Counted from the stretch's first letter, positions 16,151 through 61,121 are shown. The stretch: 64,000 nt of DNA from Alphaproteobacteria bacterium (GCA_017484225.1 JAFUTN010000022.1:2168-66167); one strand, 5' to 3'. The notes: generated by a model from the letters alone, not told the origin. Made by a program: numbers and translations.

Positions 16151-18573
16151 CAGTATTCAGCTCCTATTTGCACACCGCCGTTATCTTGTTCCGGTCCGGC
16201 GATATTATCATCTTCATCACCGATAACCCGTTGGCGATTATTAAATTCAAAATCAGGTTTGAGCGCTTCAATAATAACCGTAGAATCACTCGGTGAAGAA
16301 GGTTTTCCCGTATTCGGATTCACTCTGACCAGTTTAATTCCCTCCGGAATACGAAAAGCCGTATCCGGAACATCTTTCAGCGCATCTTGCATAAAGTCAT
16401 AAAACACCGGAAGTGCGGCCTGCGCACCGGTTTCTACTCTGCCGAGGCTGCGCGGTTCATCAAAACCCAAATATACGCCGGCAACCAAATCCGGTGAAAA
16501 TCCGACAAACCACGCATCTTTTGTTTCATTAGTCGTTCCGGTCTTTCCCGCCAAATGACGATGCAATCCGTTTAATCTGGCTCCGGTTCCTCTGGTTGCC
16601 ACACCTTCCAAAATGGATGTCATTTGATATGCTGACAACGGATCAACTACTTGTTCGCGAATTGCCTTAAAATCAGGCGCTTCTTGATTGGTCCAACTGT
16701 CTGCAACACAAGTATCACAAGGAGTCTGTTCATGTTTATAAATAGTTTTTCCTTTACGGTCTTGAATACGTTCAATCAAATACGGCGGGACTTTTTTTCC
16801 TCCGTTAACAATAACACTATATGCTCCGACCATATCAATCAAGCGAGTATCGGCAGCACCCAACGAAGATGACAAATATGGCGGAAGATGATTGTTAACC
16901 CCTACTCTTTTAGCCATATCAACAATTTTTTCCATACCTATATCCTGTGCCAAACGCACGGTCATCAGGTTTTTAGACAGTTCAACACCGCGGCGCAAGG
17001 TCATTAACCCGTAAAACTTTTTGGAATAATTCACCGGTTTCCATTTCGGCATACCGACACCCTGATCAAGAACAAAAGGAGCATCCAAAATTAAATCTGT
17101 CGGAGAATATCCGAGTTCCAATGCGGTTAAATAAACAAAAGGCTTAAATGTTGAACCTGTTTGACGAAAAGCCTGAGTTGCCCGATTGAATTGCGATTTT
17201 GCAAACGAAAAACCACCGACAAGTGCCAAAACCTTACCTGTGTGCGGGTCCATTACCGCCATGGCTCCTTCCACATCAGGAACTTGACGGAGCAAATACT
17301 CGTTATCCGTTTTTTTATCTTTACTTACTGCTTTTTCAACATAAACAACATCACCTTTTTTCAAAACCTGTTCAACCGATTTCGGCTCCGGTCCCATATT
17401 TTTTCCGCGTTCGGACCACCTCGCCCATTTTAAGGACGAAAGTAAAATTTTGCCGTTATTTTCAGCTTCCGTTTCTATTTCCGCTTCATTTGGCAAAACT
17501 TTCAAAACTACGGCTTTTTCCCATTCCGGTTCAGCACCGGCAACAAGCTTTGTGTTTTTCAATTTTTCTTTATAATCTCCGGATAATTCTATATTTGCCG
17601 TTGCTCCGCGCCAACCATGCCGTGAATCGTAAGCCAGCAAACCTTTGCGAAATGCCTTTGTCGCCATTTCCTGAATTTTCGGATCTATGGTTGTGCGCAC
17701 GATTAATCCGCCTTGATACAAGGCTTCATCACCAAAGTTATGACTGATTGAGCGTCTGACCTCTTCGCTGTAATACTCCGTTCCTTTCAAAAAACCGCTT
17801 TTACGCTCAACAACTTTCAAAGGTTTTTCCTGAGCTTCTTTTGCTTCTTCGGCTGTAATATAACCGTCTTCGGCCATACGTGTCAAAACCCAGTTGCGGC
17901 GTGCAACGGCGGCCTCATATTTTGTTTTCGGATTATAATTGTTAGGTCCTTTCGGCAATGCCGCCAAGTATGCAACCTCCTCAATAGATAATTCATCAAG
18001 TGATTTATCAAAATAATTCATGGCGGCGGCAGCCACACCATAGGCTCTGTTTCCGAGATAAATTTCATTCAAATACAATTCCAAAACATGTTCTTTGGAA
18101 AAAGCTTTACTTATGCGACGAGCCAAAATAGCTTCCTTTATTTTTCTGGTATAGGACAATTCAGATGAAAGCAAAAAGTTTTTAGCCACCTGTTGCGTTA
18201 TGGTTGAAGCGCCGGCCGGACGCCTGCCGCTCCCGTAATTTTTCAGATTGCCTATTATCGCACGTATAATTCCCAAATAATCAACACCTTTATGATAATA
18301 AAAATGTTTATCTTCTGCGGCAATAAATGCTTTTTTAACCTTATCTGGAATCATTTCAACCGGCACAAAAAGACGTTTTTCGGCAGCATATTCCATCATC
18401 AGTTGTCCATCTCCGGCAAACAAACGAGTCGTAACCGGAGGTTCATAATCGGCTAACTGGCGATAATCCGGAATAGATACATTAATTTGTGCCAAACCAT
18501 AAGTAACGGCTATTGCCGCAACAACAATAAACAACAAGGCCGTGCTGACCAAAAATGATAAAAATCTAAGCAT
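16150..18573 (-). CDS. mrcA: penicillin-binding protein 1A
   Basis: Transglycosylase motifs EDKHFYYH and GASTITQQVAKN; transpeptidase motifs STFK, SKN and KTGT. Confidence 0.95.
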   Translation of the reverse strand: MLRFLSFLVSTALLFIVVAAIAVTYGLAQINVSIPDYRQLADYEPPVTTRLFAGDGQLMMEYAAEKRLFVPVEMIPDKVKKAFIAAEDKHFYYHKGVDYLGIIRAIIGNLKNYGSGRRPAGASTITQQVAKNFLLSSELSYTRKIKEAILARRISKAFSKEHVLELYLNEIYLGNRAYGVAAAAMNYFDKSLDELSIEEVAYLAALPKGPNNYNPKTKYEAAVARRNWVLTRMAEDGYITAEEAKEAQEKPLKVVERKSGFLKGTEYYSEEVRRSISHNFGDEALYQGGLIVRTTIDPKIQEMATKAFRKGLLAYDSRHGWRGATANIELSGDYKEKLKNTKLVAGAEPEWEKAVVLKVLPNEAEIETEAENNGKILLSSLKWARWSERGKNMGPEPKSVEQVLKKGDVVYVEKAVSKDKKTDNEYLLRQVPDVEGAMAVMDPHTGKVLALVGGFSFAKSQFNRATQAFRQTGSTFKPFVYLTALELGYSPTDLILDAPFVLDQGVGMPKWKPVNYSKKFYGLMTLRRGVELSKNLMTVRLAQDIGMEKIVDMAKRVGVNNHLPPYLSSSLGAADTRLIDMVGAYSVIVNGGKKVPPYLIERIQDRKGKTIYKHEQTPCDTCVADSWTNQEAPDFKAIREQVVDPLSAYQMTSILEGVATRGTGARLNGLHRHLAGKTGTTNETKDAWFVGFSPDLVAGVYLGFDEPRSLGRVETGAQAALPVFYDFMQDALKDVPDTAFRIPEGIKLVRVNPNTGKPSSPSDSTVIIEALKPDFEFNNRQRVIGDEDDNIAGPEQDNGGVQIGAEY

Positions 18574-18688
18574 TAGTTTAAAGTTCCAAACTTATTATAC
18601 AATTAATCCAAATCTATATAATTTTTCAGAAAATGCAAATACTTTTCTGACTTATATAACAGGTATTTGTTACAAGATAAAAATGCCG

Positions 18689-19930
18689 TCAGTTTGAGGC
18701 AATTTCCGGATCTTTAAAATATTGGTCAATCGCATTAGCGGCTGCATTTGCCAGTTTCAGGCGATATGCAGGCTTACGCAAGTTAGCTTCTTCGGTGCGG
18801 TTAGATAAATATCCCATTTCCAATAAAGATGACGGAATATCCGGTGCTTTCAACACTGCAAATCCGGCAAAGCGATGTGTATTTTTCACTAATTTTACAC
18901 ATTTTGCCATTTCTTTAACCAAATATGTGGCATATTTTGATGACTTGTTACGAGTATCTGTTTGTGACAAAGAAATCAAAATATCATTTACTTCTTTACT
19001 GTTACCGCCCAAATCAACTCCGCCGATAATATCGGCTTTGTTTTCGCGTTCAGCCAGTGCAGCTGCTTCTTTATCCGAAGCCGTATCGGAAAGTGTATAA
19101 ACCGAAAGTCCGGTGGCCTGACGATTTTGTGCGCTGTCGGCATGAATTGACATAAACAAATCGGCTTTATATTTTTGTGCAATTTTAATACGCTGACGAA
19201 GCGGAATAAAAATATCCGTGTTACGTGTCAAATAAACCGTATAGCCTCTTTTTTGCAAAATAGCCTGCAATTCTTTACCCATAGACAGAGTAATATTTTT
19301 TTCATAAGTTCCGCTGCCGCCGATTGCTCCCGGATCTTTTCCGCCGTGTCCGGGGTCAAGCACTATAATTTTTTTGCGGATTGACATATTGGTAGACTCT
19401 CCGGATTTAGAAAAAGAAAACCAACTGCCGCTGCTATTTTCCTGTTCTTTCGGAGAAAACTTACTGTCATTTGTAATAGAATGTTTCGGTCCGGATTTAG
19501 ATGTAAATTCTTTATCTCCGGCAAAACTGAGATCTACAACAAAACGCCATGGCATACCGCTTTGGGGATTGAGCAAAAATGCTTTTTTTACAACCGCCGC
19601 ACGTTTCAAATCCAAAACCACACGTTTGTTATTTCCGTCCAATTTACCGATACGAGTTTTTTCCACCAACTGATTTTTGCTGCCGGCGAGCGCATTGGTT
19701 AAATTTGCATCATCCAAATCAATCACGATACGTTTCGGACCGTCAAGAGAAAAAACACGATATTTTACGCTTTTATCCATATCAAAAACAACCCGAACAC
19801 CGTCTGCCTGATTGCCGATACGCAAGTCTTTGACATTTACGGCAGCAACGGCGGTATTGATACAAAAAAACATCATGCAAAAAACGCACAAAAACAAAGC
19901 ACTTAACTTTTGATTCACAAAACGCAGCAT
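18689..19930 (-). CDS. amiC: N-acetylmuramoyl-L-alanine amidase (AMIN + Amidase_3)
   Basis: VLDPGHGGKDPG, SIHADS and LLEMGYLSN motifs; signal peptide. Confidence 0.9.
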   Translation of the reverse strand: MLRFVNQKLSALFLCVFCMMFFCINTAVAAVNVKDLRIGNQADGVRVVFDMDKSVKYRVFSLDGPKRIVIDLDDANLTNALAGSKNQLVEKTRIGKLDGNNKRVVLDLKRAAVVKKAFLLNPQSGMPWRFVVDLSFAGDKEFTSKSGPKHSITNDSKFSPKEQENSSGSWFSFSKSGESTNMSIRKKIIVLDPGHGGKDPGAIGGSGTYEKNITLSMGKELQAILQKRGYTVYLTRNTDIFIPLRQRIKIAQKYKADLFMSIHADSAQNRQATGLSVYTLSDTASDKEAAALAERENKADIIGGVDLGGNSKEVNDILISLSQTDTRNKSSKYATYLVKEMAKCVKLVKNTHRFAGFAVLKAPDIPSSLLEMGYLSNRTEEANLRKPAYRLKLANAAANAIDQYFKDPEIASN

Positions 19931-20348
19931 TATCTTTACTCATATTCGTATACATTATTTTTTTCGGATTATAATCCTCTACTTCTTACTAATCTCTTAA
20001 AATTTTTCTGCATAAATATTTTTTTTATTGTATTTTTAATTTTATTCTTTATTGTATTGGGTGATTACCGGTCGTTTTTTTCTTCAAAAGGTAAATAAAA
20101 TGTTGGTTAAGAAATAGCGACAAACAACGGTAGCAGAGGGTTTAGACTTGGATAATTATTTGCCTTTGCCGAATAAACAAGAAGAAGAAAGGGCAACGGC
20201 AAATATGTTTCACTGAGGCAAAATCTGTTTTCGTTTGAATACGAAAAGATTTATGCCGCTGACAGTTTTGTAATTGGTTCTGCGATTAGAAAAAGGGCAG
20301 AACGGTTTTGTTTGATTTGTGAATTATCCGAGCCTGTGTTGAAACGCC

Positions 20349-51400: not shown

Positions 51401-51573
51401 GTTCTTCAGATGAAAAACTTTTCATCTGTGTTTAAGGGTATCATAGAGTATTTATTTTGTAAAGGAGAATTAGAAATTGTGCGTTAAAGATGTGATATGG
51501 ATAATTTTAAATACCACCGCACAACCTCATTTTTTCAAGATAGACAACATTTAAGGCATAGCAATAGCTTTGT

Positions 51574-51798
51574 GAAAGTGGTATGCCAACAGATACAATC
51601 GCCGAGCATGAACACATCTCCAAACGAACGATTTATAAATACTTAAACCTCGCTTACCTCTCACCAAAACTCGTCAACCAACTCCTTGATGGAGCTATCA
51701 ATATCCCGCTACAGAAGTTGTTCAAAATGGCTTCTAAGAAACAGGAATTTTTTGCTCAGGATTATCATTTTGAGAAATTAAATCATATGATAAACTAG
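51574..51798 (+). pseudogene. C-terminal fragment of a recombinase-associated phage protein (copy 1)
   Basis: ESGMPTDTIAEHEHISKRTIYKYLNLAYLSPKLVNQLLDG; homologous to 59530-59709. Confidence 0.7.
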
Positions 51799-52570
51799 CC
51801 AAAGATAAATAATGTAAAGCTAAATTTTTATCTAAATCGTGTGCCAACATATGAGCTTTTTCATTACGAAGAAATTGAACCGCAAGATGTAAATAACCAA
51901 CGCCACGAAAAAAATCATATTTTGGACTGTCAATCGAAGCATCTTCTCCAAAGAGTTTTTGATAATATTTCCTGTTTTCAGCATTAAGGTTAAAAACTTC
52001 AGATGCCCTTTCTTTAGTTGTGATTTCTTTTAATTTACATCTAACGATTTTATAAGCTTCCTCTATGGCATGAAAATAGTCTTCATTGTCTAGATATCGT
52101 TTAATATGAGTATATATTTCATCTCTGATTTTAATTTTAAGTTCATTACAATAGGTGGATGTTTGTATTTTATATTCTGCTTTTGAAGTATTTTTATTAT
52201 CCAGTAATTTTGAACCAATTTTTTCTACCTGCTGAATTAAAATTCTTTGTTGATCAAAAAAATTTTTTCCAGCTGTTGTCATCCAAACTGCTTTAACGCC
52301 ACTTGATTGAGATAAATTATCTGCCATCATTTTATTAGCCAATTCTACCAACACTTTTCCAACAGTGGTGTTATCTTCAATATTCCAAAAAGTTCTAAGT
52401 CTATTTGCTTTGGAAGTTCCTTCTTCACAATATTTTTTATCATTAATATTTATTCCAAAAGTAGCAAAAAAATCTGAAAAAGTGTTATCTGAAAAATTTA
52501 AAACGTATCCAGTATGCATATTAAAAGCATTTTCAAGAATTGTTTTATCAGAATAAGATAAATCGCTCAT
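51734..52570 (-). CDS. Abi-like N-terminal domain fused to a TIGR02391/Ymh-type (HEPN-like) domain
   Basis: GYVLNFSDNTF...GTSKANRLRTFW N-terminus; YFHAIEEAYK and FLRNEKAH (RxxxxH) C-terminus. Confidence 0.7.
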   Translation of the reverse strand: MSDLSYSDKTILENAFNMHTGYVLNFSDNTFSDFFATFGININDKKYCEEGTSKANRLRTFWNIEDNTTVGKVLVELANKMMADNLSQSSGVKAVWMTTAGKNFFDQQRILIQQVEKIGSKLLDNKNTSKAEYKIQTSTYCNELKIKIRDEIYTHIKRYLDNEDYFHAIEEAYKIVRCKLKEITTKERASEVFNLNAENRKYYQKLFGEDASIDSPKYDFFRGVGYLHLAVQFLRNEKAHMLAHDLDKNLALHYLSLASLSYDLISQNDNPEQKIPVS

Positions 52571-52768: not shown

Positions 52769-53608
52769 CTATTTCTTCTCAATCTCTGTCTTTTTGTCCT
52801 TCTTCGGCAGGTAGTTTTCATCGGTAACGACGGATTTGCCGGTTTCTTCTTCATATTTTTCTTTAGCAACTCGGGCAACATTACCACCACGACGAGCGGC
52901 CTTTTTATTTTCCGCCATTCCGGTTGCTCCCATATTTTCTGCCACCTGACGCGTTGAAAGTTCTGCCAAAGCAGTAAAGATAAGTTCTGCCTCGCTCATA
53001 TGGTCACGCAAATTTTGCAATTTCAGACCTTTAAGCTGTTTATGCTCTTTAACTGACAATCCCGACCATTCCTGATGGATAATGTTTGTTAAAATCGCAT
53101 ATTCCTCATCTTTGGTAATTTCGTGATCTTTCCAATAATCCGTCAACTTATTACGAGTTTCTTGCCCCATCATACGTTGCTGGATCCATTTTTCGGAATG
53201 TCCGAGTTTTTGCCAATTCTCGCGAGCACGATCAATACTCATAGCCGGATCAACCGTTTCTTTCATCCGCTCGTAGCCGACTCGGGCAAGCCATTGTTTA
53301 ATCGGTTCAGCTTTTGGACTCGGAACGGATTGAACAATACGCAACATTGTTTCAGCATCGGCAGCATCAGTTTCGCGCATTTTTCCGTCTGATGCCAACA
53401 TTTTCAACCGTACGATTTTTTCGTACGGTTGATCAGAATTAGCTTCTTTATTCAGTTTTCGCTTCAAATCCGACCAATAACGTTTCGGCTCGTTGCTCTC
53501 GCTTAAAATTGCAATTACATCAATTACCGAAAAGTACCAAATATCCTTTTCTTCATCATATACCGAACGGATTTTGCTTTGTTCAAATAACTTAATATCA
53601 TTTTTCAT
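52769..53608 (-). CDS. BRO-N domain protein (antirepressor-like)
   Basis: IRSVYDEEKDIWYFSVIDVIAIL...RYWSDLKRKL, PSPKAEPIKQWLA and NLRDHMSEAELIF motifs. Confidence 0.88.
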   Translation of the reverse strand: MKNDIKLFEQSKIRSVYDEEKDIWYFSVIDVIAILSESNEPKRYWSDLKRKLNKEANSDQPYEKIVRLKMLASDGKMRETDAADAETMLRIVQSVPSPKAEPIKQWLARVGYERMKETVDPAMSIDRARENWQKLGHSEKWIQQRMMGQETRNKLTDYWKDHEITKDEEYAILTNIIHQEWSGLSVKEHKQLKGLKLQNLRDHMSEAELIFTALAELSTRQVAENMGATGMAENKKAARRGGNVARVAKEKYEEETGKSVVTDENYLPKKDKKTEIEKK

Positions 53609-53733: not shown

Positions 53734-54231
53734 TTATTTCTTTCGGACTAATTTGCAGTAAACTTGTGACAACAATTCAGCATCAAGCAAAGCTCCATGA
53801 ACATCTCTTTTGTTGGTATTAATGCCAAACCTTTCACATAACGCATCCAAATTACACCGCATGTTAGGAAACGCAGCTTTTGCCAGTTTCAGGGTATCTG
53901 TCATTTTATTTGTCAATTCAAAACCTAACTCGTGATTTAAGAAACTTAAATCAAAGGATATGTTATGTGCAATTAATTCTTTACCATCAATAAACTTTAG
54001 AAAATCATCCTTTATTTCATCAAAAGTCGGAAAATCTTTTAAGTAGTCCGTCGTTAAACCATGTATTTGCACAACCTCATCAGGTACAATTTGTTCCGGA
54101 TTGATATAAGTATGAAAGACGGCTCCGGTCGGTTGATTATTTTCATCAATTTCAATAGCGCCTATTTCAACCAATTTACAATTTTTAGGATCAAATCCCG
54201 TGGTTTCGGTATCAAAAATGACTTTATTCAT
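53734..54231 (-). CDS. DnaQ-like DEDDh 3'-5' exonuclease, catalytic domain only, intact motifs
   Basis: ExoI FDTETTG, ExoII HNISFD, ExoIII HGALLD; 165 aa with no epsilon C-terminal tail. Confidence 0.92.
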   Translation of the reverse strand: MNKVIFDTETTGFDPKNCKLVEIGAIEIDENNQPTGAVFHTYINPEQIVPDEVVQIHGLTTDYLKDFPTFDEIKDDFLKFIDGKELIAHNISFDLSFLNHELGFELTNKMTDTLKLAKAAFPNMRCNLDALCERFGINTNKRDVHGALLDAELLSQVYCKLVRKK

Positions 54232-54271
54232 ATATGCCTCCTATTAAATTATATTAATTATAAAAGACATA

Positions 54272-54290
54272 TCCGACAGATTCGGTCGCA
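54272..54290 (-). promoter_or_regulatory. 19-bp operator-like box A
   Basis: TGCGACCGAATCTGTCGGA, followed 9 nt later by TATAAT; 40 nt from the exonuclease ATG. Confidence 0.7.
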
Positions 54291-54311
54291 ATAAAACAAT
54301 ATACACAGAAA

Positions 54312-54503
54312 TTATTTCAAAGCATCCACGACTTTAATAAGTGTTGAAATTTGGTCATCTGATAATTTTTTAATACTGGAAATCAGTGCAGTTGCTTCAA
54401 CTAAAATATTACAACGCTCTGCTAAAACTTCCTGCGTTATCTTTGCTTTTTGACGTATAGCTTTTATTTTTAACCCGATTTTATGCTTCATGTTTCGCTC
54501 CAT
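54312..54503 (-). pseudogene. internally deleted XRE-family HTH remnant
   Basis: IGLKIKAIRQKAKITQEVLAERCNI start, but the recognition-helix region is missing. Confidence 0.55.
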
Positions 54504-54590
54504 TTATAGAAGTTAAACTTAAAGCTTTAGCTTGAAAATGAAGCAAAACTTTTATAATACTATTGTAAATACAAGTTTCACTTAATAAGA

Positions 54591-54609
54591 TGCGACCGAA
54601 TATGTCGCA
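54591..54609 (+). promoter_or_regulatory. 19-bp palindromic operator-like box B
   Basis: TGCGAC-CGAATAT-GTCGCA, extendable to GATGCGAC-N7-GTCGCATC; 46 nt from the nuclease ATG. Confidence 0.75.
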
Positions 54610-54655
54610 TCAGCATGTTAAATAGAAGTTAATATTCAATTTTAGGAGAAAATTT

Positions 54656-55561
54656 ATGACCAGAGCTTTAGATGAAAAATTTTTCAAACAATTTATAAAA
54701 GACGGCGAATATTATAATATTACATGCCTTATTAGAGATGATAGCAATTTAATGATGTGTTTACGTGGCAGTTACGTTACAATTTATTACAAAAGCCTGC
54801 AAATTTTAAGAATTAACAAAAACGGAACATTTGAAGTTGATAAAAATTATGGTATCAATCCAAATGACTATAAAGGTAATTGGGGTTTATATTTTAAGGA
54901 TGCAAAAAAAGCCATAGATAGCCACAGTCAAATTGAAAAGTTAGAAAAAGAAGTTCAACAAGCATTAGTTAAAGAAAACAATTGCAACTCTATTTGTAAC
55001 GAAACAGATTATTTTATTTTAGACATTGAATACACTCAAAGTGAATTTGATGGACGTTTTGATGCATTAGCGGTTTATTGGCCCAAAAACAAACGAAAAA
55101 ATGGCTCAAACCTCCGTTTAGCATTTGTTGAAGTAAAAGCTGGAGGAAAAGCCATTTCTGGAACAGCAGGCGTATCTGCACACTACGAATCTGTTATCAA
55201 ATTTATGGGTAATCTGAAAAAAGATAATAATAAAGAAATTTTTTTCAAAGATTTGGAAGATGTTATAGATCAACAACGTCAACTCGGTTTATGGAAATAT
55301 GAAAACCCACACAAAATAACTTTTTCGCGCACAGAAAAACCACAACTCATCTTTGTCTTGGTTAATTATAATCCGAATTCTAAACTCATAAATGATGAAA
55401 TTAAAAACATTGGTGAGCTTGTTGAAAAATATAAAAATGAGATACCTTTTGAAACTCTTTTTGCAACATCATCGTTTATGGGATATGGCTTATATGACAG
55501 CTGTATGATGTCCTTAGAATATGTACAAAAAAGATTATGCAGAGGCAATCATGAAGGCTAG
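54656..55561 (+). CDS. predicted PD-(D/E)XK nuclease
   Basis: ILDIEY...GRFDALAV...LAFVEVK pattern. Confidence 0.7.
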   Translation: MTRALDEKFFKQFIKDGEYYNITCLIRDDSNLMMCLRGSYVTIYYKSLQILRINKNGTFEVDKNYGINPNDYKGNWGLYFKDAKKAIDSHSQIEKLEKEVQQALVKENNCNSICNETDYFILDIEYTQSEFDGRFDALAVYWPKNKRKNGSNLRLAFVEVKAGGKAISGTAGVSAHYESVIKFMGNLKKDNNKEIFFKDLEDVIDQQRQLGLWKYENPHKITFSRTEKPQLIFVLVNYNPNSKLINDEIKNIGELVEKYKNEIPFETLFATSSFMGYGLYDSCMMSLEYVQKRLCRGNHEG

Positions 55562-56747
55562 TATTAAAAGAGGGGCAAATCAAATCGGCGGATCGACCGT
55601 GGAATTAACCGCCAACTCCGGTGAGCGTTTGATTATTGATTTAGGACTACCTCTGGATGCCGAAGAAAACACCGCAGATTTATTACCCGATATTAAGGGA
55701 CTAAAAAATAAAACCGATGATTTGCTGGGGATTCTTATTTCTCACCCTCATCAAGACCACTATGGCTTGGGTTTGCACATTGATAACAGCATCCCGATTT
55801 ATATGAGCAAAGCAACGGCCGATATTATGGATGTATGCGTTAAGCACAATCTTCCCAATGCCTTTGCTTTCGGTAATATACATATTTTTGATGATAAATC
55901 TTCTTTTTCCATCGGTCCGTTTACCGTAACACCATATCCGGTTGACCATTCCGCATACGGAGCATACGCCTTTTTGATAGAGGCCGACGGTAAACGCTTG
56001 TTTTACAGCGGGGACTTTCGTGCCCATGGGCGCAAGGGCAAATTATTTGACGGTTTTATCAAAAATCATCCCAAAGATATTGATGTTTTGATGATGGAGG
56101 GATCTTGCCTTGGTCGTGAACAGTCAACAAAATATCCGTCTGAAACATCTCTTGAAACAGAATTTGAAAAGGTCTTTAAGGAAACCAAAGGTGTAGCCTT
56201 TATTCAAAGTTCCTCACAAAATATTGACCGTATCGTTACCATTTACAGGGCAGCAAAGAAAAGCGGCAGGACCTTAGTCATAAGCGGTTATACAGGGCAC
56301 GTCTTAATGGTGCTAAATAACGAGCATTTACCGAGTTTCAAATGGCCGGACGTTAAAAAGTTTGCAACGGACACTACGGCACCGCATCATATAACCAAAG
56401 AGGTAATAGAACAAAATCCGTCTAAATATGTGATTGTGTTCGGCGGAATGATTTTCAATATCTTAAAAAGCAGTTCGCTTGTTAACGAAAATGCTTCCTT
56501 TATCTATTCTATGTGGGACGGCTACAAAGAGCTGTATCAAGAACGCTTAGATTTAATGAAAGAAAAAAATGTGCCGATGTATAATATTCATACTTCCGGC
56601 CACGCGGATATCCCGACATTGCAAAAATTTGCTTTGGCCATAAATCCTAAAAAAATTGTACCGATACATACTTTCTTTCCCGAGCAATTTAAGGAACTGT
56701 TCAACAACGTAGAATTGCATAATGATAACGAAACTTTTGAAATTTAG
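55551..56747 (+). CDS. MBL-fold beta-CASP ribonuclease (RNase J-like)
   Basis: QIGG, HPHQDH, VDHS, SGDFR, MMEG, HTSGHAD and VPIHT motifs; ATG 55551 overlaps the upstream stop by 11 nt. Confidence 0.9.
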   Translation: MKASIKRGANQIGGSTVELTANSGERLIIDLGLPLDAEENTADLLPDIKGLKNKTDDLLGILISHPHQDHYGLGLHIDNSIPIYMSKATADIMDVCVKHNLPNAFAFGNIHIFDDKSSFSIGPFTVTPYPVDHSAYGAYAFLIEADGKRLFYSGDFRAHGRKGKLFDGFIKNHPKDIDVLMMEGSCLGREQSTKYPSETSLETEFEKVFKETKGVAFIQSSSQNIDRIVTIYRAAKKSGRTLVISGYTGHVLMVLNNEHLPSFKWPDVKKFATDTTAPHHITKEVIEQNPSKYVIVFGGMIFNILKSSSLVNENASFIYSMWDGYKELYQERLDLMKEKNVPMYNIHTSGHADIPTLQKFALAINPKKIVPIHTFFPEQFKELFNNVELHNDNETFEI

Positions 56748-56755
56748 GATGTAAT

Positions 56756-57745
56756 ATGCCAGTAAATCATTCCGCCAGACTTGAAAAAGTAGAAAATATA
56801 ATCAGGCTTATCAATCGTATGGCAGGTTCTACCGAAGGTGTAAGCATTAATGACATTATGGTAGAATATAAAGTCTGTCGCCGTACTGCCGAAAGAATGA
56901 TGAATATTATCAGGGCGCTTTATCCAGCACAACTGGAAGAAGTCGATAACGGAGAAAACTATAAATCATATCGTTTGCAAGAGCTTTATCGCCAGGGACC
57001 GATAAAATTAGCGCCTGAAGAAATTTCCTGTCTATCTCAAGCAATAAAATTAGCTCATCGGGGAAAAAGAGAGGAATTAGCTGATGAATTACAGCACCTA
57101 GAATACCGCATAAAATCATTTTGCAAGGAAAAAGACAAGTATAACGTTGAAAATATAGCGGAAATGGAAGATATAAGCATGTCTGCCGGTCCAAAATATA
57201 TAATCAATCAAGAAATTTTAGCAGACCTTCGCAATGCCATCACAAATTGAAATGAAGTAATTATAACCTATAAACTGCGCGCAAATGGCGAAACTAAGCA
57301 CTTTCGGATACAACCTTATGGTATTTTATATGGCTCCAGACCTTATTTAGTAGCTTATTATGAGACAGATAAAGATTACCGTTATTTTTGTCTTTCTAAT
57401 ATTATTGCCATAGAGCTAACCGATATCAAATTCAGCCGCAATGAAAAATTTTCTCTGCAAAAATATGCAGAGCAGTCTTTCGGCAGTTTTCAGGAAAAAC
57501 CTTACAATGTTATTTGGAAAGTCAACAAAAACCGAGCAGATGATGCGGAACATTATTTATTTCATCCGACTCAAACTATAGAAAAGCAAAAAGACGGCAG
57601 TTTAATTGTTCGTTTCACCGCCGGTGGCTTAAAAGAAATGTGCTGGCATCTCTTTACTTGGGAGGGAGATATTGAGATACTGGAGCCGCAAGTATTAAAG
57701 GAAATGATGTGCGATTTGCTAAACAAAGCAAAAAATATGCTATAA
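56756..57745 (+). pseudogene. HTH-WYL-WCX transcriptional regulator interrupted by one in-frame TGA (57248-57250)
   Basis: The same frame continues after the TGA as NEVIITYK...QPYGILYGSRPYLVAY...FHPTQ...GGLKEMCWHLFTWEG to TAA 57745 (330 codons including stops). Confidence 0.9.
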
Positions 57746-58231
57746 TGAATTTAGTTTAGCGTAAAGTTGCACACACATGTCACACTCTTCTTCCTTAAAA
57801 TTGAAAAAATCAGAATCTTTTAATTTAAACACATGCATCAGATGAGTAACATAATTTTCTCTTAAATTTGCTTTTTTATTTACCCAACTCTTCAAATCAA
57901 TAAAATGATTAGACAGCGGTTGTTCCAACTCTCGTTCCAATACTGCTTGGGTAGATAGCGCATCATAACAAACAATTTCTTTATTGCCGATAAAAGCTAA
58001 AAAATCTTCCTTTATTTCGGATATCGTTCTTGATTCATTGATTTCATCTGCCGTGAGTCCATAAAATAATTCTATAGAATCAGGCAATTCCGCTTGCGGA
58101 TTAATAGGCGTATAAAATCGTTTGCCGGTTAAGTGTCCTGGTTCATTAAATTCCGCCGCATGGAGAGATAAAATCTTACCTTGAGTAATATTTTTACCGG
58201 TTGTTTTAATAACTAATGCAATTTCACTCAT
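57740..58231 (-). CDS. DnaQ-like exonuclease-fold protein, catalytic residues lost
   Basis: Aligns with 53734-54231 (TTG...INP...GLT...FL.FI...E.V), but ExoI DTE reads VIK and there is no ExoIII H..D. Confidence 0.75.
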   Translation of the reverse strand: MSEIALVIKTTGKNITQGKILSLHAAEFNEPGHLTGKRFYTPINPQAELPDSIELFYGLTADEINESRTISEIKEDFLAFIGNKEIVCYDALSTQAVLERELEQPLSNHFIDLKSWVNKKANLRENYVTHLMHVFKLKDSDFFNFKEEECDMCVQLYAKLNSL

Positions 58232-58233
58232 GG

Positions 58234-58737
58234 TTATTTCTCCTTTATTGTTAATTCTTTATACATTTTTGCCATCATATGACATCTTGAAAGAGGTCTT
58301 AGGTGCCACATTGTATCAATACCTTTGATATCAAACCTATTTAACAAATCAAAAAATGAAGGAGCTTTAACGTTTGGATTTTTATTTGCCAGCTCAGAAA
58401 TAATCGTTGTTTCATTAGGTAAAGCAAATCCTAACGCCATATATATAAAATTAAGGCTTTGTGCTTCATCAAAAACAACGAGTTCTTTATTCTCTAAAAA
58501 GCAAAGGAAGTTGTTTTCTAATTTGGAGAAAGTCGGCTTATCTTTAACAGTGGCCTGCGTAATACCGGTAATTGTTGAAATTTGTCGCGGTATACGACAT
58601 TGAGGATTAATCAACGAGCAAAACACATTTCCGGTAAGACGGCAATATTCATCTATTTCAATGGCCGAAAGTGATATGATTTTATCTTTTTCAAAATTTT
58701 TCCCTGTTGTTTCAATGTCTATAACAATCTTTCGCAT
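58234..58737 (-). CDS. DnaQ-like exonuclease-fold protein, partly degenerate
   Basis: ExoI IDIETTG retained; HN..FD and H.A..D replaced. Confidence 0.8.
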   Translation of the reverse strand: MRKIVIDIETTGKNFEKDKIISLSAIEIDEYCRLTGNVFCSLINPQCRIPRQISTITGITQATVKDKPTFSKLENNFLCFLENKELVVFDEAQSLNFIYMALGFALPNETTIISELANKNPNVKAPSFFDLLNRFDIKGIDTMWHLRPLSRCHMMAKMYKELTIKEK

Positions 58738-58781
58738 AACTTCTCCTTTTTTGATATATATATCTGGCTATAAAGCAGTGC

Positions 58782-58800
58782 AATGACTGTTTTGGTCGCT
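58782..58800 (-). promoter_or_regulatory. degenerate 19-bp operator-like box C
   Basis: AGCGACCAAAACAGTCATT, followed 9 nt later by TATAGC; 44 nt from the ATG. Confidence 0.5.
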
Positions 58801-58955: not shown

Positions 58956-59474
58956 ATGGGCGAGTATGCTAATCTGAAATCATTAAAAGCATACACAAAC
59001 AATGCAAAAACGCATAATGAAAAACAGCTGCAAGCACTTGCCGCATCTATCAGACAATTTGGCTTTAACAATCCGGTCTTGATTGATGAAAATAATGAAA
59101 TTATTGCCGAAGCAGAGGAAAATTGGACGATATATGATCCGATTATCGGTACAAACCGCAAAATCATACGTCATATAGGAGATTTACTACATCCGGTGCG
59201 AGAAAATAGAGAAACAGTCTTGGAATTGCAACAATCTCTCGGTGAATTCGCATTTGCCGGACAATATCAACAAAATCCGGCTCCAATCAGCGGTGGCATC
59301 GTAAAAAAAGAATGGTTACATTACTACAATGAAGTACCAAATTTGCAAAAGATCGTTCTTTCTTGGGATACTGCCGGAAAAGAAGGAAGCAACAATGCCT
59401 ATTCGGCCTGTATTGTTGTGGGAACCGAATATGACAAAAGTATCCAGAATGCAAGGAACATCCCTTTTAATTGA
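58956..59474 (+). pseudogene. deletion chimera: ParB-like N-terminus fused to a terminase large-subunit fragment
   Basis: LKAYTNNAKTH...IRQFGFNNPVLIDENNEIIA, then LHPVRE...FAGQYQQNP...SWDTAGK...YSAC. Confidence 0.75.
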
Positions 59475-59709
59475 ACAAGGAAAATTGTTGTTTGCCTTTG
59501 CCTACGCATGGCGATATAAAAAACTTTACGAAAGCGGAATGCCAACCGATGACATTGCCAAACAGGAACATATCTCTAAGCGCACAATTTATAAATACTT
59601 AAATCTTGCCTACCTCTCACCCAAACTTGTTAACCAACTCCTTGATGGAACAATGAGTATTTCCCTGCAGAAATTGTTTGAGATGTCGGCTAAACGTGAT
59701 CAGCTTTAA
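59440..59709 (+). pseudogene. C-terminal fragment of a recombinase-associated phage protein (copy 2)
   Basis: LLFAFAYAWRYKKLYESG...YLNLAYLSPKLVNQLLDG. Confidence 0.7.
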
Positions 59710-59718
59710 GGAAAAACA

Positions 59719-60741
59719 TTACTTTTTTAAATTATTCTGGATTAAAAATAACTTAGTTCTAGCATCATTCACTAAATCTGCAAGTTCACTTTCTCCGACA
59801 TTAACATTATTTTCACATAAAATTGGAAACAAAATTCCTTTAACTCTAGGATTCTTATTGTAAAATGTTTTTAGTCCTTGTAATGACTTAACAATACTAT
59901 CTTTAGCATTTGTACTTGATATATATTTGGCCTCAATTAAAAAATTATTAAAAGATAAATCTGCTACTTTTTTATTTCCATCAATTACTATTATTGCATC
60001 TTGATCTTTTAAAATACTTATAGATGGTATCCAAGGTCTCAAAATGCAGTATATCAAATTTTGAAAATCGTACTCATTTTCAATCTTAATAGTACTTTCA
60101 TTAAAATTTTTAGCTTTTCCTGCTGAGTGAAAAGTACTAAAAAAGGTTTTTTCAAATGGTACTTTGATTATTTTGGCGATTTTTTCTAAAATGGCCGTAT
60201 TCTCTGCTCCCAATAAAGTATTTGGAATATCATAATCTGAACAGTACTTATCAATACATTTTAAATGATTTTTTATACTTGATATTTCGGGCATGGCAGA
60301 CCCCAAAAATATCGCATCGTTATAAACCGCTATGTTCTTAAAATCATTAATATCTTTTGTAAACTTTTTAGACACACCATCCCAAAGAAGCACTGCTTGT
60401 AACTGTTTAACAATATTTTTTTTCCTAAAAATGCCATTAGGTCGAATATTAATATAACCTCCTGTTTTAATACTTTTGGCAAAAGAATTTATTGATTTTG
60501 TTTCAAAAATATCTAAAGGATTGTTGGTATCCTCAACATATTCAGCTTTAGTTGATAAAACTGTTGAAATTTCAGAAACAACAAGGATATCAATATCTGA
60601 GGAACGCGAATCTGTTTTAAATGCTCTAGAGCCAAATATATAAATTTTATTGATTTGAGGTGCAATTTTAATTATTTTATTTATTTCTTCTTCCAAATCA
60701 ATAAGTTTAATATTGCCTAATTTATTGATAGTTCTATTCAT
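59719..60741 (-). CDS. nucleotidyltransferase (MNT/Pol-beta type) fused to a DpnII/MboI-like PD-(D/E)XK nuclease domain
   Basis: IYIFGSRA...SDIDILV N-terminus; NEYDFQNLIYCILRP...ADL...IEAK C-terminus. Confidence 0.72.
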   Translation of the reverse strand: MNRTINKLGNIKLIDLEEEINKIIKIAPQINKIYIFGSRAFKTDSRSSDIDILVVSEISTVLSTKAEYVEDTNNPLDIFETKSINSFAKSIKTGGYINIRPNGIFRKKNIVKQLQAVLLWDGVSKKFTKDINDFKNIAVYNDAIFLGSAMPEISSIKNHLKCIDKYCSDYDIPNTLLGAENTAILEKIAKIIKVPFEKTFFSTFHSAGKAKNFNESTIKIENEYDFQNLIYCILRPWIPSISILKDQDAIIVIDGNKKVADLSFNNFLIEAKYISSTNAKDSIVKSLQGLKTFYNKNPRVKGILFPILCENNVNVGESELADLVNDARTKLFLIQNNLKK

Positions 60742-60763
60742 AATATCGCTTTCCTCTCTCTAT

Positions 60764-60907
60764 TGACTCGTCAAAATTCTCCAAAGTATGTAACTGCCGG
60801 AAATTTTGCGTTTTTGCTGTTAACAGGAGCTTACCATAGTCACTTTTGGCTTGTCAACCCCCGTAGAAGCCCCGAAACACCGCGTATACAAAAAAAGACA
60901 CCACAAT
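60764..60907 (-). repeat. 144-bp promoter cassette, copy 2
   Basis: TTGACA-N18-TAAGCT on the minus strand; near-identical to 52588-52731. Confidence 0.9.
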
Positions 60908-60928
60908 TTGGTGTCTTTTCAATTAAAA

Positions 60929-61121
60929 TGGCGGTGAGATTGAGATAGGGATTGGCTACGCCGCCACTGCGCTCATCGCCTAAAGGCGACCGCGATACTC
61001 TCGTCTCGCTTTCGCTTGTGGTCAAACCCTATTTTCTAGGGTTCAAATTCCAACTCTCCACATCATCAACAAAAAAAACACCCTAACGGGCGTTTTTTTG
61101 TTGTTGGCGGTGAGATAGGGA
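60929..61121 (-). repeat. two orphan tRNA 3'-end copies (probably Ser type; att-like) flanking a palindromic spacer
   Basis: Minus strand TCCCTATCTCACCGCCA (61121-61105) and CCCTATCTCAATCTCACCGCCA (60950-60929), each followed by a terminator; no tRNA 5' half nearby. Confidence 0.7.

Follow-up and report, generated by a model that had tools for sequence, protein, structure and literature searches.

The window examined here, a 64,000-nucleotide stretch from Alphaproteobacteria bacterium (GCA_017484225.1 JAFUTN010000022.1:2168-66167; coordinates are counted from its first letter), carries at positions 53734–58800 a compact nuclease locus. We read it, with slightly better than even confidence, as accessory cargo of a defective temperate phage, namely a cassette of two nuclease genes, NUC and MBL, under a homologue of the Caulobacter regulator DriD, with defence as its likeliest role. 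The reading draws on the linkage and natural fusion of the two nuclease genes, the homology of the regulator to DriD, the sequence, conservation and geometry of the boxes in front of the genes, and the placement of the locus in a cargo slot. All the genes claimed for it in a preliminary description were recovered by listing and translating the open reading frames (ORFs) and by family scans, and so was the tight packing of three co-directional genes. Homologues of MBL are 398 amino acids (aa) long, which fixes the MBL start and confirms an overlap of 11 nucleotides (nt) with NUC; the regulator gene begins 8 nt past the MBL stop. The XRE-type gene at 54312–54503 was absent from that description. 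The genes are arranged as follows.

53734–54231, minus strand: intact DEDDh (DnaQ epsilon-like) 3'-5' exonuclease, 165 aa (RNase_T, 1.4e-36), referred to as the left DEDDh
54312–54503, minus strand: remnant of an XRE-type helix-turn-helix (HTH) repressor gene, 63 aa, between the left DEDDh gene and the operon and divergent from NUC
54656–55561, plus strand: NUC, PD-(D/E)XK-like protein, 301 aa (alignment and AlphaFold2 model)
55551–56747, plus strand: MBL, metallo-beta-lactamase (MBL)/beta-CASP nuclease, 398 aa, overlapping NUC (Lactamase_B_2, RMMBL, RNase J subfamily)
56756–57745, plus strand: gene of a DriD-like regulator with winged HTH, three-helix-bundle, WYL and WCX parts (Pfam WYL and WCX), with a TGA at 57248–57250 (codon 165)
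57740–58231, minus strand: R1, degenerate DEDDh paralogue, 163 aa, ORF intact, residues of ExoI, ExoII and ExoIII lost
58234–58737, minus strand: R2, degenerate DEDDh paralogue, 167 aa, only ExoI kept

The regulator, when read through the TGA, aligns along its full length with Caulobacter DriD (PDB 8TP8/8TPK, 9PFQ; residues 6–325, E 1.8e-45, phmmer). The recognition helix, RRTAERM, is identical to that of DriD and includes Arg37, Glu40 and Arg41, which in DriD read conserved G and C bases of the operator (PMC10853764). The aromatic residues of the single-stranded DNA (ssDNA) site of DriD are either kept or conservatively replaced, with Y192 aligned to Y, W206 to F and Y240 to F. BrxR and CapW gave no sequence match to the window WYL protein at E <= 0.01. 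Judged by these alignments, the regulator appears to be a homologue of the DriD-type activator and does not look like the BrxR/CapW-type repressors. The WYL regulator of the preliminary description is thereby upheld, and its type is narrowed to DriD-like, with DriD-type operators. An operon divergent from driD in Caulobacter (CCNA_03891/CCNA_01149) was considered as a possible counterpart of the same MBL pair and rejected, CCNA_01149 being a TonB-dependent transporter according to the paper.

DriD recognizes the operator ATACGAC(N7)GTCGTAT, which overlaps the place of a missing -35 element and lies at a constant distance from the -10 element (PMC10853764, PMC13004042). In the DriD oligonucleotide with an 'optimised -35', the -35 hexamer occupies box positions 4–9 and the -10 element starts 12 nt past the last G of the box. 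The predicted box type that was sought has a 15-bp core, CGAC-N7-GTCG, and candidates were located upstream of three genes.

54593–54607, plus strand: DriD-type box CGACCGAATATGTCG, followed after 11 nt by TAAATA; 48 nt upstream of the NUC start codon
54274–54288, minus strand: DriD-type box CGACCGAATCTGTCG, followed after 11 nt by TATAAT; 42 nt upstream of the left DEDDh start codon
58784–58798, minus strand: weaker DriD-type box CGACCAAAACAGTCA, followed after 11 nt by TATAGC; upstream of R2

Exact 19-bp boxes of the form GCGACCGAATnTGTCGnAT occur twice in the window, against 0.13 expected by chance, and each points toward its gene. In all three predicted promoters, a TA-rich hexamer begins exactly at the -10 position deduced from DriD, and box positions 4–9 match TTGACA at only 2 of 6 positions, as they do in promoters that depend on DriD. 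The related loci L016, L018 (73–77% DNA identity) and L024 (65%) have the NUC box unchanged, and L016 and L018 also retain the left DEDDh box. Relatives that carry the nuclease pair and no WYL gene (L019–L023) have no such box. The CGACCAAAACAGTCA box has one mismatch, retains all four key bases and is identical in L016; it is less well supported because it is absent in L018. The boxes, as putative DriD-type operators, track the WYL gene. A second alphaproteobacterial lineage, with the gene order MBL-NUC-WYL, contains palindromes of the form AGAC-N7-GTCT, of which one has the same 11-nt offset to TATACT. In the same lineage, a GGAC-N7-GTCT box (L066, 11983–11997) stands 11 nt from TATACT before the gene that follows WYL.

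These box counts bear on the possibility that the arrangement is a chance juxtaposition in a decaying prophage, in which NUC-MBL would be the sole unit, the DEDDh genes and boxes would be unrelated to it and nothing would be functional. When one mismatch is allowed, the 15-bp box is common (8 observed in the window, 7.7 expected); moreover, the local regulators are broken, the prophage has suffered deletions and the DEDDh linkage is limited to close relatives. Chance does not readily account for the two exact boxes, for their retention at 65–77% DNA identity with the same spacing to -10-like hexamers, or for their co-occurrence with the WYL gene. The nuclease and DEDDh ORFs are intact in the window and across diverged relatives, and the module with an intact WYL codon is present in several herbivore and pig gut metagenomes. 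We regard such a juxtaposition as very improbable.

The association of the two nuclease genes extends well beyond the window. Of 62 informative loci, each with 1.5 kb or more of sequence to either side, 48 have MBL directly beside NUC on the same strand, in the order NUC-MBL at 42 and MBL-NUC at 6, and they are spread over many phyla. Next to MBL homologues at 44–55% identity, too, an unannotated protein (307–317 aa) comes directly after MBL. Fused NUC-MBL proteins of 702–723 aa occur in Melainabacteria (P0050–P0052, L030), with identities of 50% for the NUC half and 69% for the MBL half. Fusion is strong evidence that both proteins act together, and from this pattern NUC and MBL probably work as one enzyme. 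The linkage of nuclease and beta-CASP genes that had been predicted is therefore borne out by the adjacency and the natural fusions. The proposed co-occurrence with WYL genes was also seen in the genome search: a WYL-like gene lies within 5 kb of the pair in 20 of 80 genome loci (iterated hidden Markov model search), which makes it the most frequent neighbour, and WYL/WCX is the top Pfam family among the co-directional neighbours. Other neighbours of the pair include McrBC, Mrr and REase-ARP genes, as well as HAD_SAK_2 and Metallophos genes. The fused gene adjoins two GmrSD genes, and in some loci NUC stands without MBL beside McrBC-type or REase-ARP genes.

NUC has no match in Pfam, NCBIfam, PADLOC or PHROGs in library scans. 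An alignment of 25 sequences shows that D136, E159 and K161 are invariant, together with D118, D123, E125, H176 and Q206. The AlphaFold2 model is confident (pLDDT 90.8, pTM 0.89) and consists of a small N-terminal alpha/beta domain followed by a helix, three strands, helices and more strands. D136 is located on the second of the three strands and the E159-x-K161 motif on the third, and the order of helices and strands is compatible with the alpha-beta-beta-beta-alpha-beta core of PD-(D/E)XK nucleases. PD-(D/E)XK, DUF2726, MmcB-like and RecB-like proteins are frequent among the weak Foldseek matches. From the motifs and the predicted topology only, NUC may be assigned to this group by inference, and we call it 'PD-(D/E)XK-like' because no search confirms the fold assignment. 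The family is large. A profile search of 1.84 billion representatives, with clusters defined at 50% identity, gave 2,047 clusters at E <= 0.001, of which 619 reach E <= 1e-30, and a word-indexed search returned only 35 homologues. A pattern-limited scan of a collection with one genome for each of 185,579 species gave 139 confirmed relatives, which are found in Alphaproteobacteria, Melainabacteria, Bacteroidales, Clostridia, Planctomycetota, Omnitrophota, Acidobacteriota and others.

The MBL protein belongs to the beta-CASP family: it displays the metallo-beta-lactamase fold, an HxHxDH motif (HPHQDH), the beta-CASP insert, a C-terminal RMMBL domain and a His in motif C (VPIHT). It scores 6e-14 against Lactamase_B_2, 23.0 bits against RMMBL (cut-off 21.6) and 1e-21 against the RNase J subfamily, and aligns with PDB 2az4 over residues 50–384 (1e-20) and with RNase J (3e-16). 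It is not RNase J proper, reaching 76.8 bits of the 400 required for TIGR00649 and 58.8 of the 820 for RnjA. The motif C His and the RMMBL match favour RNA or ssDNA as the substrate of the MBL subunit, as far as motifs can tell. The combined DNase/RNase module of the preliminary description, with NUC as the DNase and MBL as the RNase, is a possible arrangement.

The phage origin of the locus is apparent from its closest relative, L001/L016, a horse-faeces alphaproteobacterial metagenome-assembled genome (contig JAKSVU010000003) in which the same block lies inside a prophage. The order in L016 is integrase, cargo, Bro-N, DEDDh, XRE, NUC, MBL, an intact WYL gene (329 aa) and two DEDDh genes, beyond which follow ParB-methyltransferase, DUF5681 and large terminase genes. 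The window is collinear with L016 at 92–98% DNA identity with three differences, all of them losses: 141 bp within the XRE gene, one small downstream gene, and a segment from the ParB-methyltransferase N-terminus through mid-terminase. Two outer features complete the comparison.

52769–53608, minus strand: Bro-N domain gene downstream of the left DEDDh (Pfam Bro-N 7e-9; phrog_15286 4e-91)
58956–59474, plus strand: deletion scar, a chimeric ORF in which the ParB-methyltransferase N-terminus is joined to a large-terminase fragment

The Bro-N protein has a 96% identical counterpart in L016 and is thus kept alongside the module in that related prophage. Judged by its gene content, the element is a phage remnant unable to package, its packaging genes having been deleted. 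The decay of the 'decayed integrative island' described previously is confirmed, and the element is identified instead, by the terminase/ParB-methyltransferase scar, as a prophage remnant.

The module occupies a slot between recombinase/DUF2924 and ParB-methyltransferase genes, and the content of this slot varies in the three closest phage contigs. It is empty in L097 and L099. In L100 (56–7901) it holds HsdM, HsdS, an unknown protein of 629 aa, an AAA_21/AAA_15 ATPase and two further unknown proteins, with no recognisable HsdR beside HsdM/HsdS. The equivalent slot of Melainabacteria prophages holds XRE, NUC and MBL genes, and WYL, PHP and Schlafen-like helicase genes lie across the recombinase from the pair. 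In L003–L005 (1953–5269, minus strand), two paralogues of 232 aa and a PHP-domain protein come after a WYL/WCX gene, across a serine recombinase from NUC-MBL; this block may be the counterpart of the WYL and exonuclease arrangement in the window. NUC itself shows a distinct history. The segment 54578–55500 has about 73% DNA identity to L016 and both flanks have 96–100%. L016 and L018 have a NUC allele in common (89% identical), and their MBL genes are 82% identical. This pattern indicates that NUC alleles move between related elements independently of their neighbours, and such exchange is typical of specificity or escape determinants.

A phage setting also raises the question of whether the module serves the phage life cycle, with the DriD-like protein as an SOS-independent induction sensor and the nucleases and exonucleases as early lytic functions (host nucleic-acid breakdown, recombination, replication intermediates). 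Three prophage lineages have the pair as the first operon transcribed divergently from an XRE/CI-like repressor and upstream of the ParB-methyltransferase and terminase genes, the left DEDDh matches phage 'DNA polymerase exonuclease subunit' PHROGs, and an ssDNA-sensing activator would suit induction. However, the module is absent from 28 of 28 viral contigs encoding ParB-methyltransferase homologues (33–66% identity), NUC has no PHROG and one match only in IMG/VR, and most members of its family reside in non-phage contexts. The first two of these observations led us to reject the NUC-MBL module as a core phage gene set, and a role in the phage life cycle is rather improbable on the balance of these data.

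The catalytic-residue alignment agrees with the earlier assignment of one intact and two degenerate DEDDh genes and displays a gradient of decay: five residues kept in the left DEDDh (ExoI D and E, ExoII D, ExoIII H and D), ExoI only in R2 and none in R1. The left DEDDh scores 194.9 bits against the DnaQ equivalog (cut-off 196). The R1 orthologue in L018 is 63% identical and its ORF is intact. Outside its closest relatives among alphaproteobacterial prophages (L016, L018 and L024), the pair has no DEDDh genes beside it, and the candidacy of these genes as part of a family-wide conserved system is therefore rejected. The three DnaQ-like genes of the preliminary description are thus not components of a conserved system; what stands is that, in this lineage, the left DEDDh gene shares the box of the operon. 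In L018 (5518–6009, minus strand), the left DEDDh orthologue has Ala in place of the ExoII Asp, so loss of catalytic residues recurs in this DEDDh set. L024, 65% identical, contains at 17217–19980 (minus strand) two DEDDh genes, of which one is without ExoIII and the other carries an inserted internal repeat. Downstream of them, and co-directional, lies a second beta-CASP MBL paralogue, 41% identical, after which no NUC-like partner was found. A DriD-like box (19966–19952) precedes this DEDDh-DEDDh-MBL2 operon.

The two regulators are both damaged in the window. The TGA at codon 165 interrupts the WYL gene in frame at a position where L016 and contigs of five other metagenome runs (sheep gut, faeces, pig gut and unlabelled) have a Trp codon. 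Recoding of TGA was considered and rejected, because TGA terminates 11 of 53 long ORFs in this genome and relatives encode Trp. Since TGA is a normal stop and relatives have Trp, the nonsense codon is peculiar to this strain, and intact versions of the regulator are in circulation. A second regulator is specified by the divergent XRE gene. This gene encodes 106–110 aa in relatives, and the 110-aa form of L016 matches phage repressor PHROGs; the in-frame deletion of 141 bp in the window, which is bounded by an 8-nt microhomology, has removed most of its DNA-binding HTH part. Metagenome X6 has a full-length XRE gene together with the NUC allele of the window, and pig-gut metagenome X8 has another XRE deletion, of 157 nt. 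The two distinct deletions imply that the repressor was lost more than once. With its regulator stopped at codon 165 and XRE without HTH, the window copy is probably not inducible by its own regulator, judging from the ORFs. A host-encoded DriD could act on the window boxes.

In intact copies, the cassette would work as follows. By analogy with DriD, ssDNA arising from DNA damage or from a replicating invader would bind the WYL domain of the phage-borne regulator. The DriD-like dimer would then bind the CGAC-N7-GTCG boxes, which would stand in for the missing -35 elements, and would activate the NUC-MBL-driD-like operon, hence the regulator itself, together with the intact DEDDh gene. The R1/R2 DEDDh pair would perhaps be activated likewise, and the divergent XRE repressor would provide a second layer of control. 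The induced nucleases, acting as one enzyme, would degrade DNA and/or RNA, and the likeliest outcome would be restriction of an infecting phage or killing of the damaged or infected cell (abortive, BapE-like). The DEDDh ssDNA exonuclease may trim or remove the inducing signal, and its catalytically dead paralogues may bind ssDNA or 3' ends. A tentative extension, which we consider possible and no better than that, holds that NUC-MBL is a widespread two-nuclease immune effector in which NUC is swapped as the specificity or escape determinant; here it would be plugged into a DriD-type ssDNA alarm whose signal is shaped by active and dead DEDDh proteins, to give a self-contained abortive prophage defence.

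Several observations weigh against the reading as a defence cassette under DriD-type control. With respect to regulation, activation rather than repression by the DriD-like protein is deduced from geometry alone, the third box is weak and missing from L018, and the RNA data are limited to three short metatranscriptome contigs that overlap NUC, MBL and R2 at 97–99% identity, weak evidence of transcription in related populations. The local regulators are damaged, and the local copy may be inert. With respect to the fold of NUC, the best Foldseek values (E 0.08 in the PDB and 0.02 in BFVD) are not significant, a profile search of PDB sequences returned noise only, and hhalign against two REase-ARP proteins gave a probability of 0.04. 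With respect to context, WYL is found at only a quarter of the loci and DEDDh in one lineage only; several chromosomal loci lack a defence context, such as L009 and L012–14 with ogt beside the pair, and the L015 pair adjoins RtcB/PrfH in a plain chromosomal setting.

These chromosomal loci fit a repair role as well. The cassette would in that case be a module for DNA-damage repair or tolerance and a host fitness factor, in which the DriD-type regulator induces an endonuclease and a 5'-3' beta-CASP exonuclease and DEDDh assists at the ends; the parallel in eukaryotic crosslink repair would be XPF-ERCC1 with SNM1A. Such a role would agree with DriD, PafBC and DdaA being DNA-damage WYL activators with regulons that contain recA, recJ and nucleases, with the core-chromosome pairs beside ogt or RtcB/PrfH repair genes, and with the HAD_SAK_2 and Metallophos neighbours. 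It is at odds with the patchy and mobile distribution of the family in the species scan, with the restriction-modification (R-M) system held elsewhere by the phage slot of the module, with the GmrSD, McrBC, Mrr and REase-ARP neighbours and with the exchange of NUC alleles between elements, and the motif C His and RMMBL of the MBL protein point to RNA-acting relatives. On this evidence, we regard repair as unlikely, and defence cargo of a temperate phage remains the preferred interpretation.

Further cargo surrounds the module. A single 340-aa protein encoded at 59719–60741 (minus strand) joins a nucleotidyltransferase of the Pol-beta type to a DpnII/MboI-like restriction endonuclease domain and gives weak PADLOC matches to the PDC-M05A, PDC-S09 and Aga helical-REase models. 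Two repeat pairs flank the module: 51563–51683 with 59484–59693, both copies of which resemble L016 20610–20822, and 52587–52814 with 60763–60948. Each pair adjoins a different cargo gene, these being a Hypoth_Ymh/TIGR02391 protein gene (51734–52570) and the nucleotidyltransferase-DpnII/MboI-like fusion.

The preliminary description recognised no named system with this combination, and a PADLOC v2 run and a literature search agree. PADLOC-DB v2.0.0 contains zero families for NUC or MBL, and only its generic DEDDh and WYL accessory models match the flanking genes; the literature on beta-CASP proteins with WYL, defence, anti-phage or prophage terms yielded only type VII CRISPR and unrelated papers. 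The regulatory logic is already known from DriD, DdaA, BrxR and CapW, and so are beta-CASP nucleases. None of the libraries and papers searched contains the NUC family or describes its pairing with this MBL clade. New here are the DriD-type regulator with readable operators, the box that the operon has in common with a DEDDh exonuclease gene in this lineage, the phage slot of variable content and the exchange of NUC alleles. If the pair is an immune effector, a common system is missing from current defence catalogues, and a beta-CASP nuclease would act in immunity outside type VII CRISPR-Cas. The phage has apparently borrowed a host-type, SOS-independent damage sensor, and the locus hints at a possible regulatory role of catalytically dead DnaQ-like proteins. 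The lineage is a convenient entry point, with a regulator close to the structurally solved DriD, readable operators and intact alleles in public metagenomes, so that regulation, toxicity and phage protection are testable by reporters and plaque assays.

A comparison with known systems reveals partial likeness to several of them. RNase J, the EF2904 group (PDB 2az4) and Cas14 share with MBL the HxHxDH motif, the beta-CASP insert, the motif C His and RMMBL. By contrast with RNase J, the window protein scores far below the equivalog cut-offs and, at 398 aa, is without the C-terminal RNase J domain; it also has a PD-(D/E)XK-like partner and, unlike Cas14, no CRISPR context. Cas14 of type VII CRISPR-Cas nevertheless sets a precedent for a beta-CASP nuclease as an immune effector. 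As to the genomic setting, defence hotspots of the P2/P4 type in phages and satellites were reportedly described by Rousset et al. in 2022. Like them, the slot here is fixed between conserved phage genes and variable in content; it differs in belonging to another phage group and host, and its status as a hotspot is drawn from a handful of contigs.

BrxR/BREX, CapW/CBASS and DdaA resemble the locus in joining a nucleic-acid-sensing WYL regulator to potentially toxic effectors on mobile islands. BrxR and CapW, however, are repressors, and NUC-MBL is part of none of BREX, CBASS or the systems driven by DdaA. DdaA, a WYL activator of Moraxellaceae, drives R-M, CRISPR-Cas and Zorya, which is a precedent for the control of defence genes by a WYL activator. 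The DriD regulon of Caulobacter crescentus is alike in the winged HTH, three-helix-bundle, WYL and WCX architecture of the regulator, in its identical base-reading residues and in its exonuclease and nuclease targets. DriD is an ssDNA-triggered activator whose targets are didA, bapE, recJ, recA and dnaG, and it induces the nuclease bapE about 100-fold and the ssDNA exonuclease recJ 10–20-fold. The set in the window differs in residing on prophage cargo of a low-GC gut alphaproteobacterium and in having its regulator, truncated locally, as the last gene of its own target operon. Its targets would be the NUC/beta-CASP pair and DEDDh genes instead of didA, bapE and recJ, with an XRE repressor added.

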